Of a stretch of DNA of 64,000 nt, positions 21,974 to 48,487 are shown piece by piece. The stretch is from Escherichia coli (GTDB lineage Bacteria; Pseudomonadota; Gammaproteobacteria; Enterobacterales; Enterobacteriaceae): the NCBI RefSeq assembly GCF_051903065.1, contig NZ_CP178438.1, one strand, 5' to 3'. A program made the position numbers and the translations under genes. Below the pieces are notes generated by a model that was not told the DNA's origin, did no database searches, and saw nothing but the letters and a program-made list of their open reading frames with translations. Position 1 is the stretch's first letter. Each line of letters opens with the position of its first letter.

Positions 21974-22465
21974 ATGAACATACTTCTCTCTATTGCAATC
22001 ACAACAGGCATTCTCTCCGGTATTTGGGGATGGGTGGCTGTTTCCCTGGGCTTACTAAGCTGGGCGGGCTTCCTGGGCTGTACGGCCTACTTTGCCTGCC
22101 CGCAAGGTGGGCTGAAAGGGCTGGCGATCTCCGCTGCAACCCTGCTTAGTGGCGTGGTGTGGGCGATGGTCATTATTTACGGTAGTGCACTGGCACCACA
22201 TCTGGAAATTCTCGGTTATGTCATAACCGGTATTGTCGCGTTTCTGATGTGTATTCAGGCCAAACAGCTGCTGCTTTCATTTGTTCCGGGGACGTTTATA
22301 GGCGCATGCGCGACGTTTGCCGGGCAGGGTGACTGGAAACTGGTGTTACCTTCGCTGGCGCTTGGGCTGATATTTGGTTACGCAATGAAAAACAGCGGCC
22401 TGTGGCTGGCGGCGCGTAGTGCAAAGACGGCGCACCGTGAGCAGGAAATCAAAAATAAAGCGTGA
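21974..22465 (+). CDS. ycdZ: Inner membrane protein YcdZ (DUF1097)
   Basis: 163 aa from internal ATG (MNILLSIAITTGILSGIWG...). Confidence 0.9.
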   Translation: MNILLSIAITTGILSGIWGWVAVSLGLLSWAGFLGCTAYFACPQGGLKGLAISAATLLSGVVWAMVIIYGSALAPHLEILGYVITGIVAFLMCIQAKQLLLSFVPGTFIGACATFAGQGDWKLVLPSLALGLIFGYAMKNSGLWLAARSAKTAHREQEIKNKA

Positions 22466-22498
22466 GGGGCACTCACGCTTTCGCTTAAACAGTAAAAT

Positions 22499-22524
22499 GC
22501 CGGATGATAATTCCGGCTTTTTTA
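22499..22524 (+). terminator. Hairpin terminator between convergent ycdZ and csgG
   Basis: GCCGGATGATAATTCCGGC followed by TTTTTT. Confidence 0.5.
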
Positions 22525-22528
22525 TCTG

Positions 22529-23362
22529 TCAGGATTCCGGTGGAACCGACATATGGCGGTATTTCACCAGAATGTCATTCTGCCGTTCTGCTTTATTTTG
22601 CAAATCCCACAGACCACGGTCGATACCATCATTAATCAGGAAAATGACCCCTGTTTCGATAGCCGACATCAGACACAGCATAACGGGTTCGTTTGAGGTG
22701 TAACCCACTTCCCCTTCCAGCAAGCGCTGGTAGTCAATAAAGCGGAAAACCCCGGCCTGAACTTCATAGGAAAGTATCGTCTTACTGGTGTTCACCGAGG
22801 AGAGGATCTCACCGGTACTCACATTGACGACGCGCAGGTTCACGGCAATCTGATCGAGCTGGTATTGCGTGTCGGCACCGATCCCAAAATATCTTGCCCC
22901 AACCCCGCCCGATTTGACGTTGCTTTCATAACCGATAATCGAACCTTCAACCATGATATTTGCCGCCGTTAAAGATTGCAGCGGGATTCGGTTATTAATG
23001 GCAACCGTGCCGTTTTCTTGTGCCGCACGAATAATCTTGCGCTCGTTAAGCAGGTTTTGTAAGCCCTGGCGCTCCAGCGGTATAAACCAGCGAGAATCTT
23101 TCAATGCCGTGACCAGCATCGCCGTGGCGCTTTGCGGAACAGCAGTGGAGAAGTTACTTGCCGGGTAGGGTTTAAATTGCCCGGTTTCGTCCTGAATGTT
23201 GTATACCGAAACAAAGATCTTACCCGTCGGCGCTGGCAGATGGGTCAAATCTTTGTAGCTCTGAGCACGAGGCATTAATGTCGGTCTGGCGGCTTCTTTA
23301 GGCGGGGCGGTTAAGCATCCGCTCAGTAACATGACGGCAACCAAAAGAAATAAGCGCTGCAT
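22529..23362 (-). CDS. csgG: Curli secretion channel lipoprotein CsgG
   Basis: 277 aa MQRLFLLVAVMLLSGC... Confidence 0.95.
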   Translation of the reverse strand: MQRLFLLVAVMLLSGCLTAPPKEAARPTLMPRAQSYKDLTHLPAPTGKIFVSVYNIQDETGQFKPYPASNFSTAVPQSATAMLVTALKDSRWFIPLERQGLQNLLNERKIIRAAQENGTVAINNRIPLQSLTAANIMVEGSIIGYESNVKSGGVGARYFGIGADTQYQLDQIAVNLRVVNVSTGEILSSVNTSKTILSYEVQAGVFRFIDYQRLLEGEVGYTSNEPVMLCLMSAIETGVIFLINDGIDRGLWDLQNKAERQNDILVKYRHMSVPPES

Positions 23363-23388
23363 GATTATTTTCCTTATGAAGCTGGGGC

Positions 23389-23805
23389 TTAAAAATCGGT
23401 TGAGTTATTTTGTAAACCCGAAACCTGGATAGTCGAGGTTTGTCCGGTTTTACGATCTGTCACGTTCAACTGCAATTGACCATCGCGGTTGGCAATATCG
23501 ACAATATAATCGTTGGTCACCATGCGGCCCGGTTTCCCGGTATTAATATTCGACAGTAGCCCACCCAAAATTTGTGACTGGATGGCCTGAGTAAAGTTAT
23601 CTAACGCTGAGGGTGTTTCAATACCATAGTCATCGTTATAGCTCGGATCTTTATACGAGTTCTGTGCCTGGGCGCTATTTAATAAAAAAGCGCCATTATT
23701 TGGGTTGCCACCAAAGTTTGGATTACGGAACTGGAAAGTCATGGTTCCAGCCCAACTTAAAGGCGAAATAAACATGAGTAGAACTAGTGCATGTTTGACA
23801 CGCAT
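23389..23805 (-). CDS. csgF: Curli assembly protein CsgF
   Basis: 138 aa. Confidence 0.95.
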
Positions 23806-23829
23806 TGCAGCCTCCGAACAATTTTTTAT

Positions 23830-24219
23830 TTAGAATTCATCATGCGCCAAATCGCCCGTACTTAATAACGCCTGATTTATCTGGCGACGATTTAGTGCTT
23901 CTTCAGTTTGAATCAGTGCAAAGACGACAGTTTTCTCGAAGTCTCTTTTCAACGGGAATAAAAAAGTCTGGAAAATAACGTCCTGATTGACCGTTATTGT
24001 GATCCAGCTTCCCCATCGTGCACTGGGCCTTTCATTAATCGTTAAGTTACCCGTATAGTCACTTTCCCATTTATCACTAAAGGCTCGGTAAAAATCATGG
24101 CCAATAGATGAAACAGTATGGTCAGTTAACAATCCCGGGACTTCTACCTCAACGGCGTGAAGATTCCCTGCGGCGAACAGAAATTCTGCCGCCACAATCC
24201 AGCGTAAATAACGTTTCAT
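23830..24219 (-). CDS. csgE: Curli secretion specificity factor CsgE
   Basis: 129 aa. Confidence 0.95.
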
Positions 24220-24223
24220 GGCT

Positions 24224-24874
<651 letters not shown>

Positions 24875-25627
24875 GATGAAACCCCGCTTTTTTTATTGAT
24901 CGCACACCTGACAGCTGCCTCTAAAATAGAAGCACCAGAAGTACTGACAGATGTTGCACTGCTGTGTGTAGTAATAAATCAGCCCTAAATGGGTAAAATA
25001 TAAAACTAATGGATTACATCTGATTTCAATCTAGCCATTACAAATCTTAAATCAAGTGTTAAACATGTAACTAAATGTAACTCGTTATATTAAAATGTTA
25101 ACCTTAAGGTTTTATTAAGTTTAGGAATGATAGAAAAGTTGTACATTTGGTTTTTATTGCACAATTTTAAAAAATCATACAAATGGTGCTAACTTACTAA
25201 TAATGCATATAAAAAATATTTCGGTGTAGTCCTTTCGTCATGTAAAACGTTCTTGTTTTTTCTCCACACCACCGTGGACAATTTTTTACTGCAAAAAGAC
25301 GAGGTTTGTCACGGCTTGTGCGCAAGACATATCGCAGCAATCAGCGACGGGCAAGAAGAATGACTGTCTGGTGTTTTTTGCTAGCGGAACACGGAGATTT
25401 AAAAGAAAACAAAATATTTTTTGCGTAGATAACAGCGTATTTACGTGGCTTTTAATACTTTGGTATGAACAAAAAAAGAAAAATACAACGCGCGGGTGAG
25501 TTATTAAAAATATTTCCGCAGACATACTTTCCATCGTAACGCAGCGTTAACAAAATACAGGTTGCGTTAACAACCAAGTTGAAATGATTTAATTTCTTAA
25601 ATGTACGACCAGGTCCAGGGTGACAAC
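24875..25627. promoter_or_regulatory. csgD-csgB divergent intergenic regulatory region (promoters, csgD 5' UTR)
   Basis: 753-bp AT-rich non-coding region between divergent csgDEFG and csgBAC; individual binding sites not mapped here. Confidence 0.7.
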
Positions 25628-26083
25628 ATGAAAAACAAATTGTTATTTATGATGTTAACAATACTGGGTGCGCCTGGGATTGCAGCCGCAGCAGGTTATG
25701 ATTTAGCTAATTCAGAATATAACTTCGCGGTAAATGAATTGAGTAAGTCTTCATTTAATCAGGCAGCCATAATTGGTCAAGCTGGGACTAATAATAGTGC
25801 TCAGTTACGGCAGGGAGGCTCAAAACTTTTGGCGGTTGTTGCGCAAGAAGGTAGTAGCAACCGGGCAAAGATTGACCAGACAGGAGATTATAACCTTGCA
25901 TATATTGATCAGGCGGGCAGTGCCAACGATGCCAGTATTTCGCAAGGTGCTTATGGTAATACTGCGATGATTATCCAGAAAGGTTCTGGTAATAAAGCAA
26001 ATATTACACAGTATGGTACTCAAAAAACGGCAATTGTAGTGCAGAGACAGTCGCAAATGGCTATTCGCGTGACACAACGTTAA
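25628..26083 (+). CDS. csgB: Curli nucleator CsgB
   Basis: 151 aa from internal ATG (MKNKLLFMMLTILGAPGIAAA...). Confidence 0.93.
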   Translation: MKNKLLFMMLTILGAPGIAAAAGYDLANSEYNFAVNELSKSSFNQAAIIGQAGTNNSAQLRQGGSKLLAVVAQEGSSNRAKIDQTGDYNLAYIDQAGSANDASISQGAYGNTAMIIQKGSGNKANITQYGTQKTAIVVQRQSQMAIRVTQR

Positions 26084-26123
26084 TTTCCATTCGACTTTTA
26101 AATCAATCCGATGGGGGTTTTAC

Positions 26124-26582
26124 ATGAAACTTTTAAAAGTAGCAGCAATTGCAGCAATCGTATTCTCCGGTAGCGCTCTGGCAGGTGTTGTTCCTCAGTA
26201 CGGCGGCGGTGGCGGTAACCACGGTGGTGGCGGTAATAACAGCGGCCCGAATTCAGAGCTGAATATTTATCAGTACGGTGGTGGTAACTCTGCACTTGCT
26301 CTGCAAGCTGATGCTCGTAACTCTGATCTTACTATTACCCAGCATGGTGGTGGTAACGGTGCAGATGTTGGTCAGGGCTCAGATGACAGCTCAATCGATC
26401 TGACCCAACGTGGCTTTGGTAACAGCGCCACTCTTGATCAGTGGAACGGTAAAGACTCTCATATGACAGTTAAACAATTCGGTGGCGGCAACGGTGCAGC
26501 GGTTGACCAGACTGCATCTAATTCCACCGTCAACGTAACTCAGGTTGGCTTTGGTAACAACGCGACCGCTCATCAGTACTAA
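26124..26582 (+). CDS. csgA: Major curlin subunit CsgA
   Basis: 152 aa, five imperfect repeats of S-x5-Q-x-G-x-G-N-x-A-x3-Q. Confidence 0.95.
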   Translation: MKLLKVAAIAAIVFSGSALAGVVPQYGGGGGNHGGGGNNSGPNSELNIYQYGGGNSALALQADARNSDLTITQHGGGNGADVGQGSDDSSIDLTQRGFGNSATLDQWNGKDSHMTVKQFGGGNGAAVDQTASNSTVNVTQVGFGNNATAHQY

Positions 26583-26603
26583 TACATCATCTGTATTAAA
26601 GAA

Positions 26604-26628
26604 ACAGGGCGCAAGCCCTGTTTTTTTT
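26604..26628 (+). terminator. Rho-independent terminator after csgA
   Basis: ACAGGGC-GCAA-GCCCTGT followed by T8. Confidence 0.6.
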
Positions 26629-26640
26629 CGGGAGAAGAAT

Positions 26641-27405
<765 letters not shown>

Positions 27406-27499
27406 GTTTCTGAACAACTCACGTTGCTGAGCAGAAAAATGCGATTTAACCAAAAAGCCTGCTGTACACTTAAGAAACAAGAAGGTGTAAGGAGGCGTT

Positions 27500-28033
27500 A
27501 TGAAAACGCGTATTCATGTTGTGCAGGGTGATATTACCAAACTGGCCGTTGATGTGATTGTGAATGCGGCTAATCCTTCATTAATGGGAGGTGGCGGCGT
27601 CGATGGGGCCATTCATCGCGCAGCGGGGCCGGCCCTGCTGGATGCCTGTTTAAAAGTCAGGCAACAGCAGGGCGATTGCCCTACGGGGCATGCCGTTATT
27701 ACGCTTGCAGGCGATCTTCCCGCTAAAGCCGTAGTGCACACCGTCGGGCCAGTCTGGCGTGGTGGTGAACAAAACGAAGACCAGCTTTTGCAGGATGCCT
27801 ATCTCAATAGCCTACGACTGGTGGCGGCAAACAGCTATACGTCAGTGGCTTTTCCTGCAATCAGTACTGGGGTTTATGGTTACCCTCGTGCGGCAGCGGC
27901 TGAAATCGCAGTAAAAACCGTTTCAGAATTTATTACCCGTCACGCTTTACCCGAACAGGTATACTTTGTCTGTTATGATGAAGAAAACGCCCACCTCTAC
28001 GAAAGACTCCTTACCCAACAAGGAGATGAATGA
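27500..28033 (+). CDS. ymdB: Macro-domain protein YmdB (O-acetyl-ADP-ribose deacetylase, RNase III modulator)
   Basis: 177 aa [25 protein letters not shown]... Confidence 0.93.
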
Positions 28034-28034
28034 T

Positions 28035-29456
28035 TTGCCCCGGCTGGCGAGCGCGGTGCTGCCACTGTGTTCGCAACATCCTGGTCAGTGTGGTCTTTTC
28101 CCTCTGGAGAAAAGTCTGGATGCGTTTGCCGCCCGGTATCGTCTGGCCGAAATGGCAGAGCATACGCTGGATGTTCAGTATTACATCTGGCAGGACGATA
28201 TGTCGGGTCGGTTACTGTTTTCCGCCCTGTTAGCCGCAGCAAAGCGTGGCGTTCGCGTCCGTTTGTTGCTGGACGACAACAATACGCCCGGACTTGACGA
28301 CATTTTACGCTTGCTTGACAGTCATCCCCGCATTGAAGTCCGGCTTTTTAATCCTTTCTCGTTTCGCTTGCTGCGTCCGCTTGGTTATATCACCGACTTT
28401 TCCCGTCTCAATCGCCGTATGCACAATAAAAGTTTCACTGTCGATGGCGTGGTTACCCTGGTGGGAGGACGAAATATTGGTGATGCCTATTTTGGGGCAG
28501 GGGAAGAGCCACTTTTTTCGGATTTAGATGTTATGGCAATAGGACCCGTGGTAGAGGACGTTGCCGATGATTTCGCCCGCTACTGGTATTGCAAATCGGT
28601 TTCACCCTTACAGCAGGTGCTGGATGTCCCGGAAGGTGAAATGGCGGATCGCATCGAGTTACCCACCTCCTGGCATAACGATGCTATGACGCATCGTTAC
28701 TTACGCAAAATGGAATCCAGTCCGTTTATAAATCATCTGGTTGATGGAACGTTGCCGCTTATCTGGGCGAAGACACGTTTATTAAGTGATGATCCGGCGA
28801 AAGGGGAGGGCAAGGCAAAACGGCATTCACTGTTACCGCAGCGCCTGTTCGATATCATGGGCTCACCCAGTGAACGCATCGATATTATCTCTTCCTATTT
28901 TGTACCGACACGCGCAGGTGTGGCGCAACTCTTACGGATGGTGAGAAAAGGGGTAAAGATTGCGATCCTAACCAATTCTCTTGCCGCTAACGATGTTGCT
29001 GTCGTCCATGCCGGATACGCGCGCTGGCGCAAAAAATTGCTCCGTTATGGCGTGGAATTATATGAACTCAAGCCGACGCGTGAACAAAGTAGTACGTTAC
29101 ACGATCGCGGCATAACAGGTAATTCCGGTGCCAGCCTGCATGCTAAAACCTTTAGCATCGATGGTAAAACGGTGTTTATCGGCTCTTTCAATTTCGATCC
29201 GCGTTCAACATTGCTCAATACTGAAATGGGCTTCGTGATAGAGAGCGAAACGCTGGCACAGTTAATTGATAAACGCTTTATTCAGAGCCAGTATGATGCG
29301 GCCTGGCAGCTCCGTCTGGACAGGTGGGGACGGATCAACTGGGTTGATCGTCATGCAAAGGAAGAGATTATTCTCAAAAAAGAACCCGCCACCAGTTTCT
29401 GGAAGCGGGTTATGGTCAGACTGGCGTCGATATTGCCCGTGGAATGGTTATTGTAA
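28035..29456 (+). CDS. clsC: Cardiolipin synthase C (PLD superfamily)
   Basis: 473 aa from TTG 28035 (AAGGAG 9 nt upstream), two HxK(x4)D motifs; in-frame ATG at 28026 overlaps the ymdB stop. Confidence 0.88.
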   Translation: MPRLASAVLPLCSQHPGQCGLFPLEKSLDAFAARYRLAEMAEHTLDVQYYIWQDDMSGRLLFSALLAAAKRGVRVRLLLDDNNTPGLDDILRLLDSHPRIEVRLFNPFSFRLLRPLGYITDFSRLNRRMHNKSFTVDGVVTLVGGRNIGDAYFGAGEEPLFSDLDVMAIGPVVEDVADDFARYWYCKSVSPLQQVLDVPEGEMADRIELPTSWHNDAMTHRYLRKMESSPFINHLVDGTLPLIWAKTRLLSDDPAKGEGKAKRHSLLPQRLFDIMGSPSERIDIISSYFVPTRAGVAQLLRMVRKGVKIAILTNSLAANDVAVVHAGYARWRKKLLRYGVELYELKPTREQSSTLHDRGITGNSGASLHAKTFSIDGKTVFIGSFNFDPRSTLLNTEMGFVIESETLAQLIDKRFIQSQYDAAWQLRLDRWGRINWVDRHAKEEIILKKEPATSFWKRVMVRLASILPVEWLL

Positions 29457-29463
29457 ATGTGGC

Positions 29464-30621
29464 TTAACGGGCTGGTGCTTTATCGTTCTCACGCTTAACA
29501 ACCGGTTTACCAGAAAACAAAAACTTCAGTAACGGGATGCGTAAATGAATTTCATACAGAATTATCGCAATCCCTACTACGAATATCAGGCCACAGAGAA
29601 AACCAAGCCAGTTGGAGGTGATGTGCGGTGTAATGTATGCGCCGAAAAACAGCGTTAACGGGTGGTGAACCAGATAGATAAACAGCGATGCGTTAACAAA
29701 GTAAGTCACCCGCGCTGACTGGAAGTTAAGCAAACGGTGGCCAAAGGAGAAGACCACATTCACCATCCACAGACCGAGGACCATGGTGATCACCGACTCG
29801 GTTTCGTACATCCAGGCATCGCCACTGCCATAGCGCTGGTTGAGTAAATAAGCGACAAACGCCAATGCTGCAGCGAGGGTACAGCCACGAGACGGCGTGG
29901 TAAACAAGGCTTTAAGATGAGGGAAAATGAAAGCCAGTGCGCCGAGGATAAAGAACGGTAAATAAAATAGCGTTTGCATGACAATAAAATTGAACATGCC
30001 ATTACTCAGAATGGGCGGATACACAATAAAAATCGTTCTTCTTATTACCGCATAACCGATGCCGAGGCACAAAAAAATCACCGATAGTTTTACCATCGAG
30101 AATTTTTTATTCGTTTTATCAGAATTTTCTAAATTATTTCTGATGCGTTTAAATATCCATACGCACAGCGTCGTCATGACCACTAACACCAGTAAAAACC
30201 ACAGGTGTGATATTAATTCCCAGGCTAACGTATTATATTTGTCATACAATGACAGCCCAGGCCAACTTTCCGCTTTCCCTTTGACGTATTGCAGCATAAT
30301 AAATTGCGGCAATGTCAGTAGGGGGATGGCTGTTAACATCGGGATCCCTACACGTTCGACACGTACTTTCCACCATTTTTTCAAGGGATAGCGTAAAAAA
30401 AGCATGTAGGAAAAGTAGCCGGATATAACGAAAAATACCTGCATGCGGAACGAGTGGATGAAGTCATTAAAAAGGGTCAGCCACAATGACGGTTCGGCGC
30501 TATTCACATGCCATGTATGGCTCGAATAGATTAAAGAAATATGAAAAGGGATCCCTAACAACATCAGCCAGGCGCGGATGGAGTCGAGGAAATATTCACG
30601 TTGCGCGGGTACTGGATTCAT
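29464..30621 (-). CDS. opgC: OPG succinyltransferase OpgC (MdoC)
   Basis: 385 aa polytopic acyltransferase. Confidence 0.93.

Positions 30622-47244: not shown

Positions 47245-48487
<1,243 letters not shown>

Follow-up and report, generated by a model that had tools for sequence, protein, structure and literature searches.

The additional glycine codon of an Escherichia coli csgA allele and the divergent tract at whose edge it lies

Introduction

The major curli subunit CsgA carries a glycine-rich stretch close to its mature N-terminus. In a 64,000-nt stretch of Escherichia coli DNA (the window), an earlier note made from the sequence alone reported that this stretch was one glycine longer than in K-12, and considered the length a possible strain marker. 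The question raised by this locus is whether the additional glycine identifies a lineage or alters the protein. It was found that the window very probably contains a normal, functional csgA for the major curli subunit, which belongs to one of three common E. coli classes and in which the extra glycine is most likely neutral.

Identity and integrity of csgA and its operon

The csgA coding sequence was located at 26124..26582 on the plus strand as an ATG-to-TAA open reading frame of 152 codons plus stop, and its translation contained GGGGGNHGGGGNN at residues 27–39, in agreement with the protein length and sequence given in the earlier note. The protein matched the curlin repeat family (Pfam PF07012, Curlin_rpt) in three stretches with 96.2 bits and E=1e-27, the gathering score being 20.7, and it matched the NCBIfam CsgA equivalog NF007470 over its full length (residues 1–152) with 238.6 bits against a cut-off of 160. 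These two results placed its identity as CsgA beyond chance; the CsgB equivalog scored just 35.1 bits on the same protein against a cut-off of 165. At the DNA level, the gene was 100% identical to genes annotated csgA.

The first 20 codons (26124..26183, plus strand) encode the Sec signal peptide MKLLKVAAIAAIVFSGSALA, which is identical in K-12 and is presumably cleaved after codon 20, the site established for CsgA. It is followed by GVVPQY (26184..26201, plus strand), the hexapeptide of mature CsgA recognised by CsgG, which was the same as in K-12 and included the conserved Val3, Gln5 and Tyr6. Alignment with K-12 then delimited a run of five glycine codons (26202..26216, plus strand) and the whole N-terminal targeting segment N22 (26184..26252, plus strand), which has 23 residues in the window allele. 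The curlin repeats R1–R5, the amyloid core, occupy 26253..26579 (plus strand). Their borders were transferred from K-12, whose published numbering we take to apply here: R1 at 26253–26321, R2 at 26322–26387, R3 at 26388–26456, R4 at 26457–26522 and R5 at 26523–26579, all on the plus strand. Residues of the R3–R4 linker are named in PMC7217966. In the core pattern Ser-X5-Gln-X4-Asn-X5-Gln, every core Ser, Gln and Asn of the window CsgA matched K-12, and the invariant columns of the alignment included core Ser, Gln and Asn residues.

The genomic context was also that of a complete curli locus, with csgB-csgA-csgC divergent from csgDEFG and all ORFs intact. The minor curlin and nucleator gene csgB (25628..26083, plus strand, 151 aa) showed 0 differences from K-12 in 456 nt. 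According to the RefSeq annotation of 13 genomes, its product is WP_000791650.1 in 11 and WP_001360656.1 in two. It was observed that csgB is unusually invariant while lying directly beside csgA, the most variable gene of the window. Downstream, csgC for the curli chaperone (26641..26973, plus strand, 110 aa) was recognised by Pfam PF10610 with 181.8 bits. The csgDEFG operon (22529..24874, minus strand) consists of four intact ORFs encoding CsgG (277 aa), CsgF (138 aa), CsgE (129 aa) and CsgD (216 aa); it is collinear with K-12 and was assigned from the annotation of the near-identical genome 23CRST031. A terminator-like hairpin with a U-tract was found in the csgA–csgC gap (~26598..26627, plus strand), with a folding energy of –19.1 kcal/mol and z = –5.2, and 0 of 200 shuffled sequences folded as well. 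A scan with consensus promoter and terminator patterns gave nothing significant and missed this hairpin, which was seen by direct folding.

Differences from K-12 CsgA

The csgA of K-12 MG1655 (NC_000913.3, b1042, NP_415560.1; 456 bp, 151 aa) was used as the reference. Direct alignment of the two proteins, which were not identical, gave one additional Gly codon in the window allele, so that the K-12 length given in the earlier note was right. The remaining differences were the substitutions T61A, N110D, E112H and S134T (K-12 numbering), 147 of the 151 aligned residues being identical. Substitutions had been claimed for R1 and R4, which was right for positions 61 and 112, but two others were located at the last residue of R3, within the R3–R4 linker (110), and in R5 (134). 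The nucleotide sequences differed at 30 of 456 positions (6.6%), with a dS of 0.26, a divergence that was absent from the earlier note. Among the changed codons, 23 were synonymous and 4 non-synonymous.

Ala62 of the window protein (K-12 Thr61; codon at 26307..26309, plus strand) lies just past the end of strand 2 of R1; among the 13 E. coli alleles sampled, 11 have Ala at this position, as do several other Escherichia species. Asp111-Ser-His113 (K-12 Asn110-Ser-Glu112; 26454..26462, plus strand) is situated at the R3–R4 junction and contains the site that defines three allele classes, with N110 and E112 in class I, D110 and T112 in class II, and D110 and H112 in class III. Thr135 (K-12 Ser134; 26526..26528, plus strand) is residue 2 of R5, the same repeat position as 112 in R4, and Thr at this position was restricted to class III alleles among all those sampled.

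Frequency and origin of the additional glycine

The glycine run reads GGC GGC GGT GGC GGT in the window and GGC GGC GGC GGT in K-12, and no unique placement of the extra codon within the run is possible. The repetitive GGY context is the only reason to consider a sequencing or assembly artefact. Dozens of genomes that were finished independently of one another contain the same 459-bp sequence with 100% identity, and the 459-bp length recurred across other allele classes and in other species, by which an artefact is refuted with hardly any doubt.

Two systematic samples were drawn, spaced evenly along the ranking of all genomes and comprising 59 full-length matches each. A 459-bp (152-codon) csgA was present in 17 and 15 of them, respectively, that is, in 32 of 118 genomes (27%); the frequencies refer to RefSeq complete genomes, among which O157:H7 and ST131 are over-sampled. 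The run of five glycines (G5) was present in all 8 of the sequenced 152-codon alleles, which were distributed over the three csgA classes: CT265 in class I, ST131, NC101, SCU-115 and 300033 in class II, and all O157-like alleles in class III. The four-glycine run (G4) was seen in classes I and II among the twelve representative loci fetched. Both lengths were also found in other Escherichia, G4 in E. albertii, MOD1-EC7003 and SCPM, and G5 in E. whittamii, E69 and E1V33, the spacer of E1V33 containing one additional Asn. Over Citrobacter, Salmonella, Enterobacter and the sampled Enterobacteriaceae, the length of CsgA ranged from 144 to 153 aa, and the variation was in the same N-terminal segment. 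The suggested use of the length as a strain marker was not borne out, since it is shared by about a quarter of the sampled complete E. coli genomes, by all three classes and by other species. What identifies the lineage is the complete DNA haplotype combined with H112 and T134, and not the length of the Gly run.

The sampled E. coli G4 alleles had a single codon pattern and a single 5' haplotype, whereas the G5 alleles had at least three codon patterns. This contrast suggests a single indel event that was spread by recombination, and not rapid slippage. The additional glycine would probably have arisen when the (GGY)n run gained or lost a single GGY codon, after which the length variant may have been carried between alleles by intragenic recombination. 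Since codon pattern and 5' haplotype are uniform among the E. coli G4 alleles sampled, the Gly run is unlikely to slip rapidly or to be phase-variable.

Distribution of the window allele

The window CsgA corresponds to RefSeq WP_000771428.1, 'curli major subunit CsgA', which was found in O157:H7 PV15-279 and in the non-O157 genomes D8, TUM13936 and 23CRST031. Its 459-bp csgA showed 100% DNA identity to many finished O157:H7 genomes. Among 5,382 E. coli genomes with a csgA match, the identity was at least 99% in 353, 95–99% in 22 and 90–95% in 5,006. The allele is already known, catalogued and widespread. An exact-sequence look-up in a collection of 15 billion proteins returned neither the window CsgA nor the K-12 CsgA.

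It was also considered whether the window itself is O157:H7 DNA. This was rejected, because the window, unlike PV15-279, has no ISEc8 in csgG and no serX island. Over 22 kb (7500..29500), the window was 99.995% identical to 23CRST031, an isolate of 4.95 Mb obtained in Ecuador from human faeces, and only 7 genomes covered at least 80% of window positions 13500–23500. In PV15-279, csgG (locus L037, 20079..23362) was seen to be split by ISEc8, an element of the IS66 family, which should abolish curli secretion; csgG of the window is intact.

The N-terminal segment and the likely effect of the variant

Export of CsgA by the Sec system, its secretion through CsgG with CsgE, and its nucleation with CsgB and CsgF are described in the curli literature. 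The window CsgA would follow the same route: it would be exported by Sec, dock on CsgG via the unchanged GVVPQY and be secreted with the help of CsgE, after which CsgB and CsgF would nucleate it on the cell surface, where the repeats R1–R5 would form a β-solenoid. The additional glycine would make the Gly/Asn-rich spacer, a disordered stretch that links the docking motif to R1, one residue longer.

The role assigned to the N-terminal segment in the earlier note, that of a secretion-targeting region, agrees with the published work (PMC7217966, PMC6957492). In the CsgFG–N22 structure, six residues at the N-terminus of mature CsgA occupy a crevice on CsgG, and the corresponding peptide CsgAN6 (G1V2V3P4Q5Y6) is roughly equal to N22 in CsgG binding, Val3, Gln5 and Tyr6 being the key residues (PMC6957492). 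The glycine-rich stretch of N22 could not be assigned by NMR (PMC7217966), AlphaFold2 (AF2) and proteolysis data placed this stretch outside the fibre core (PMC10192328), and both studies describe N22 as disordered and outside the core. Cryo-EM suggests partial contact of N22 with the sides of the fibre (PMC11005368), and N22 influences the conformational ensemble of the repeats, its removal shifting N110, S111 and M113 (PMC7217966).

The AF2 model of the window CsgA had a mean pLDDT of 83.5 and a pTM of 0.77. Residues 1–16 of the mature protein were below a pLDDT of 50, and the ten strands of R1–R5 were at 84–96. The repeat region is accordingly predicted by the model to be a β-solenoid of stacked strand-arc-strand units, and the N-terminal segment to be disordered; the sequence matched the solved CsgA of PDB 8ENQ with E=1.2e-75. 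The extra Gly is located directly downstream of the unchanged GVVPQY, within the predicted disordered spacer. In window numbering, the model placed A62 as the last residue of a strand, D111 in an arc, and H113 and T135 each as the first residue of a strand. Whether a substituted residue faces inward or outward was deduced from the published repeat motif N-$-Psi-$-Psi-$-Q (PMC10192328) together with the DSSP string of the model. By this reasoning, positions 112 and 134 are the first outward-facing '$' residues of R4 and R5 and should be stacked neighbours on the fibre surface. As the substitutions fall at arcs and strand starts and spare the core Ser, Gln, Asn and Ala, they would be expected to change the fibre surface and to leave amyloid formation unaffected.

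It was previously reported that NADC 6565, the CR+ derivative of O157:H7 strain 86-24, binds Congo red, forms red colonies and produces abundant curli (PMC5343319). The csgA of the 86-24 genomes NADC 5570/86-24/6564 and NADC 5570/86-24/6565 was found to be 100% identical to that of the window. The Congo red phenotype, which had been suggested as a check, may in effect be regarded as settled at the level of the complete allele, but not for the glycine by itself. Because GVVPQY is unchanged, the spacer is disordered and a curli-rich 86-24 derivative has an identical csgA, the extra glycine is most likely neutral.

A different view would be that the extra glycine tunes function, the longer spacer altering the release of N22 from CsgG or the shielding of the repeats, and hence the kinetics of secretion or nucleation. 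The binding of N22 to CsgG, the shift of the conformational ensemble near gatekeeper regions when N22 is removed (PMC7217966) and the cryo-EM hint that N22 partly touches the fibre sides (PMC11005368) are consistent with such a role. But six residues suffice for CsgG binding (PMC6957492), the length and sequence of the spacer vary freely among species with working curli, G4 and G5 are both found on otherwise near-identical class II bodies, and the segment is disordered. This makes functional tuning very unlikely, and neutrality of the glycine is preferred; a subtle effect of the variant on secretion or nucleation kinetics may exist in view of the influence of N22 on the repeat ensemble (PMC7217966).

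A divergent tract within csgA

The window was collinear with K-12 at ~98.2–98.4% identity. The csgA differences were concentrated in a tract at 26210..26537 (plus strand), which showed 33 differences from K-12 in 328 bp. The 5' edge of this tract is the extra Gly codon, and past 26537 the divergence fell back to background. Upstream of it, there were zero differences from K-12 over the 738 bp from 25472 to 26209, which include all of csgB and reach 86 nt into csgA. The region around 25472..26209 was observed to differ from K-12 by ~1.6%. Among 57 genes compared with K-12, the dS of csgA (0.258) was the highest, the median being 0.046.

Detailed analysis was carried out on 13 E. coli alleles and 8 outgroup alleles. 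In the 13 E. coli strains, nucleotide diversity (pi) was 0.073 in the tract, compared with 0.004 in csgB, 0.010 in csgC, 0.007 in csgD and 0.003 in the first 86 nt of csgA, an approximately ten-fold excess. The tract contained 56 segregating sites and just four amino-acid polymorphisms. The alleles fell into classes that were 25–41 nt apart from each other and differed by at most 11 nt within a class. When classes were counted by identity bands from three class queries, which nearly partitioned the data set, the 5,367 full-length matches comprised 3,271 of class I (K-12-like), 1,714 of class II (ST131-like) and 375 of class III (O157-like), or ~61%, 32% and 7%. The class of the window, with D110, H112 and T134, was the rarest. 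The dS between classes was 0.26–0.38 and dN/dS was 0.02–0.07, which indicated that the protein is strongly conserved under purifying selection and that the alleles are old.

Recombination within the gene was evident, as 218 of 990 informative site pairs failed the four-gamete test, with Rmin of 9. Mosaic alleles with a K-12-type 5' end and a class II body were found in 144, DG342-2 and CFSAN061771.

Several simpler causes of the tract were considered. A raised local mutation rate is unlikely, because the variation occurs in discrete classes, and because the divergence from Salmonella was 26% for csgA and 16.7% for csgB, a ratio of ~1.5, yet csgA was more than ten times as polymorphic within E. 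coli. Conversion among the five repeats could be a minor contributor at most, since the GGx-GGx-GGx-AAy motifs that the repeats share contain only ~6 of the 30 differences. Chi sites were examined as a cause of the sharp tract borders and rejected, since none was present within 5 kb of csgA and the nearest were at 19495 and 32061.

The literature was searched for csgA allele classes, polymorphism or balancing selection, and no description was found; in a bioRxiv paper on STEC, csgA was treated solely as present or absent. As judged from the sequence comparison, csgA appears to be an island with sharp borders in which diversity is in excess, mostly silent and in part trans-specific; the searchable literature offered no description of it.

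Relationship to other Escherichia species

A DNA-pattern scan of species-representative genomes yielded csgA from E. albertii, E. whittamii, four more Escherichia, Salmonella and Citrobacter; as it returned no E. coli sensu stricto representative, E. fergusonii or E. marmotae, the outgroup sampling is incomplete. The csgA distances between E. coli classes (6–9%) were comparable with those between Escherichia species (5.5–12%). In the csgB tree, the E. coli sequences formed one tight cluster and E. albertii was basal with 100% bootstrap. The csgA tree placed class II with E. albertii (91% bootstrap), away from classes I and III. The dS to E. albertii was 0.21 for class II and 0.48–0.49 for classes I and III. 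The class I state N110/E112 was also found in E. whittamii, E69, SCPM and E1V33, and the class II state D110/T112 in E. albertii and MOD1-EC7003; H112 and T134 of class III were found in no other species sampled. Many 'class-specific' silent variants also occurred in E. albertii, E. whittamii, E69, E1V33 and SCPM. Taken together, the csgA data are compatible with ancient polymorphism, with introgression between species or with the two combined, short recombination tracts having reshuffled the variants.

Two genomes titled E. coli, SCPM-O-B-8794 and E69 (loci L023 and L024), were observed to have a CsgA with GSIPQY or GSIPQF, like non-coli Escherichia, and their csgA differed by 8–12% from the E. 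coli classes. Both probably belong to cryptic clades and bear the label E. coli. Between E. coli and its sister species, the docking motif for CsgG is not the same at residues 2–3.

One explanation of the tract is introgression, in which short segments were imported from other Escherichia or cryptic clades and reshuffled in E. coli without selection on CsgA. The conflict between the csgA and csgB trees over class II and E. albertii, the low dS between these two, the silent variants shared with E. albertii, E. whittamii, E69, E1V33 and SCPM, the failed four-gamete tests with the mosaic alleles, and the sharp borders of the tract all point to imports. However, a class III-like sequence was present in no sampled species, the nearest non-coli relative being 7.7% different, and H112/T134 was unique to class III, so that no donor was found among the species sampled. 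Introgression also leaves unexplained why imports should be concentrated in these 328 bp while csgB is almost invariant. It is put forward here as a tentative possibility.

The other explanation supposes that the classes (D110, H112, T134 and possibly the length of the Gly run) are ancient surface variants under balancing or frequency-dependent selection. Candidate agents include host antibodies, innate recognition, phage and matrix partners, and the extra Gly would hitch-hike at the edge of the selected tract. The dS of csgA, which tops the 57 genes, the high pi of 26210–26537 relative to csgB and the first 86 nt of csgA, and the near-partition of 5,367 genomes into three classes are in line with this, as is a polymorphism that, relative to csgB, is in excess of the divergence from Salmonella. 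The amino-acid differences moreover cluster at the stacked positions 110, 112 and 134, and the change from N110/E112 to D110/T112 keeps the net charge. On the other side, only four residues vary and dN/dS is 0.02–0.07, giving no sign of diversification at the protein level; the detailed set comprised just 13 E. coli sequences, and introgression alone could yield the same pattern. Selection on such surface variants is considered rather unlikely. The same degree of doubt applies to the fuller statement that the mature-coding part of csgA is an island of ancient, partly trans-specific polymorphism whose classes are kept by balancing or frequency-dependent selection on the patch 110/112/134.

Other features of the window

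Several further segments of the window differed from K-12. The region 15343..19031 is absent from K-12, where IS3, ymdE and ycdU occupy the position. In a matching genome, it was annotated as pdeT (c-di-GMP phosphodiesterase), a frameshifted YqeJ-family gene, a truncated winged-helix gene and IS1A. It adjoins a tRNA-Ser gene (serX), and PV15-279 has a large island at the same tRNA. Near serX, an 80-bp element at 19182..19261 corresponded to three tandemly spaced copies in K-12 (1097142, 1097323 and 1097504; 181-bp spacing) with 98.8–100% identity. The segment 1..2322 did not align to the putP–efeU region of K-12 and was present in full in just 643 of 5,341 matching genomes; it was annotated only as 'hypothetical protein', and its sole internal ORF of at least 90 aa was one of 104 aa.

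The strongest divergence peak relative to K-12 was found in flgE (54700..55250) and flgF (55482..56237), with up to 16% per 300-nt window. The flgE gene had a dS of 0.13, a dN of 0.033 and a one-codon length difference, and flgF a dS of 0.18. This peak is probably another recombinant or surface-exposed variable segment. The yceH gene (47840..48487) had a dS of 0.22, second to csgA, its neighbours rimJ and yceM being at 0.02–0.07, and it appears to be a further short segment of imported or ancient origin. At 13600..14000, an intergenic or 5' region between pgaA and dgcT, the divergence reached 9.7% in a 300-nt window. Chi sites (GCTGGTGG) were observed 12 times in the window against 2.0 expected, 10 of the 12 on the plus strand. 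Strand-biased enrichment of Chi is known in E. coli.

Implications

The extra glycine itself is of little weight, being part of a catalogued allele and a common length variant in a disordered spacer. It is probably harmless as well as common, and csgA overall is unusually diverse among E. coli strains. The K-12 CsgA, on which nearly all biochemical and structural work on curli has been done, is one of three classes and the shorter of the two common lengths. PCR or typing schemes that assume an invariant csgA will face 6–9% sequence divergence. Should selection on the fibre surface underlie the diversity of the tract, csgA would rank with fimA, fliC and the O-antigen genes as a surface locus moulded by pressure from host or phage, and it would then be relevant to anti-curli antibodies, curli-based materials and the interactions of curli amyloid with the host.

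Comparison with known CsgA systems

The K-12 CsgA (b1042; PDB 8ENQ/8ENR, with the N22 peptide in 6L7C) shares with the window protein the signal peptide, GVVPQY, the five repeats and the core residues, and its operon context is the same as that of the window csg loci. The window protein differs from it in one more spacer Gly and in T61A, N110D, E112H and S134T, the nucleotide changes being concentrated in 26210–26537. For WP_000771428.1 of O157:H7 and 23CRST031, csgA is identical to that of the window in both protein and DNA. In O157:H7 PV15-279, the 4 kb around csgA showed 29 differences from the window, none of which lay within 25928–26709. The class II CsgA of B2/ST131 type (WP_000771429.1) also has 152 aa, GGGGGNHGGGGNN, A61 and D110, but it has T112 and S134 instead of H112 and T134, and its gene differed from the window csgA at 36 nt (7.9%), with a dS of 0.38. 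The CsgA of Salmonella (AgfA) and that of Citrobacter have the same architecture, with P4 and Q5 of the docking motif conserved and a Gly/Asn/His-rich spacer that is variable in length like that of the window CsgA. In contrast to the E. coli alleles, their csgA genes show ~25% nucleotide divergence and encode a GVVPQW motif, different spacers and proteins of 144–151 aa overall.
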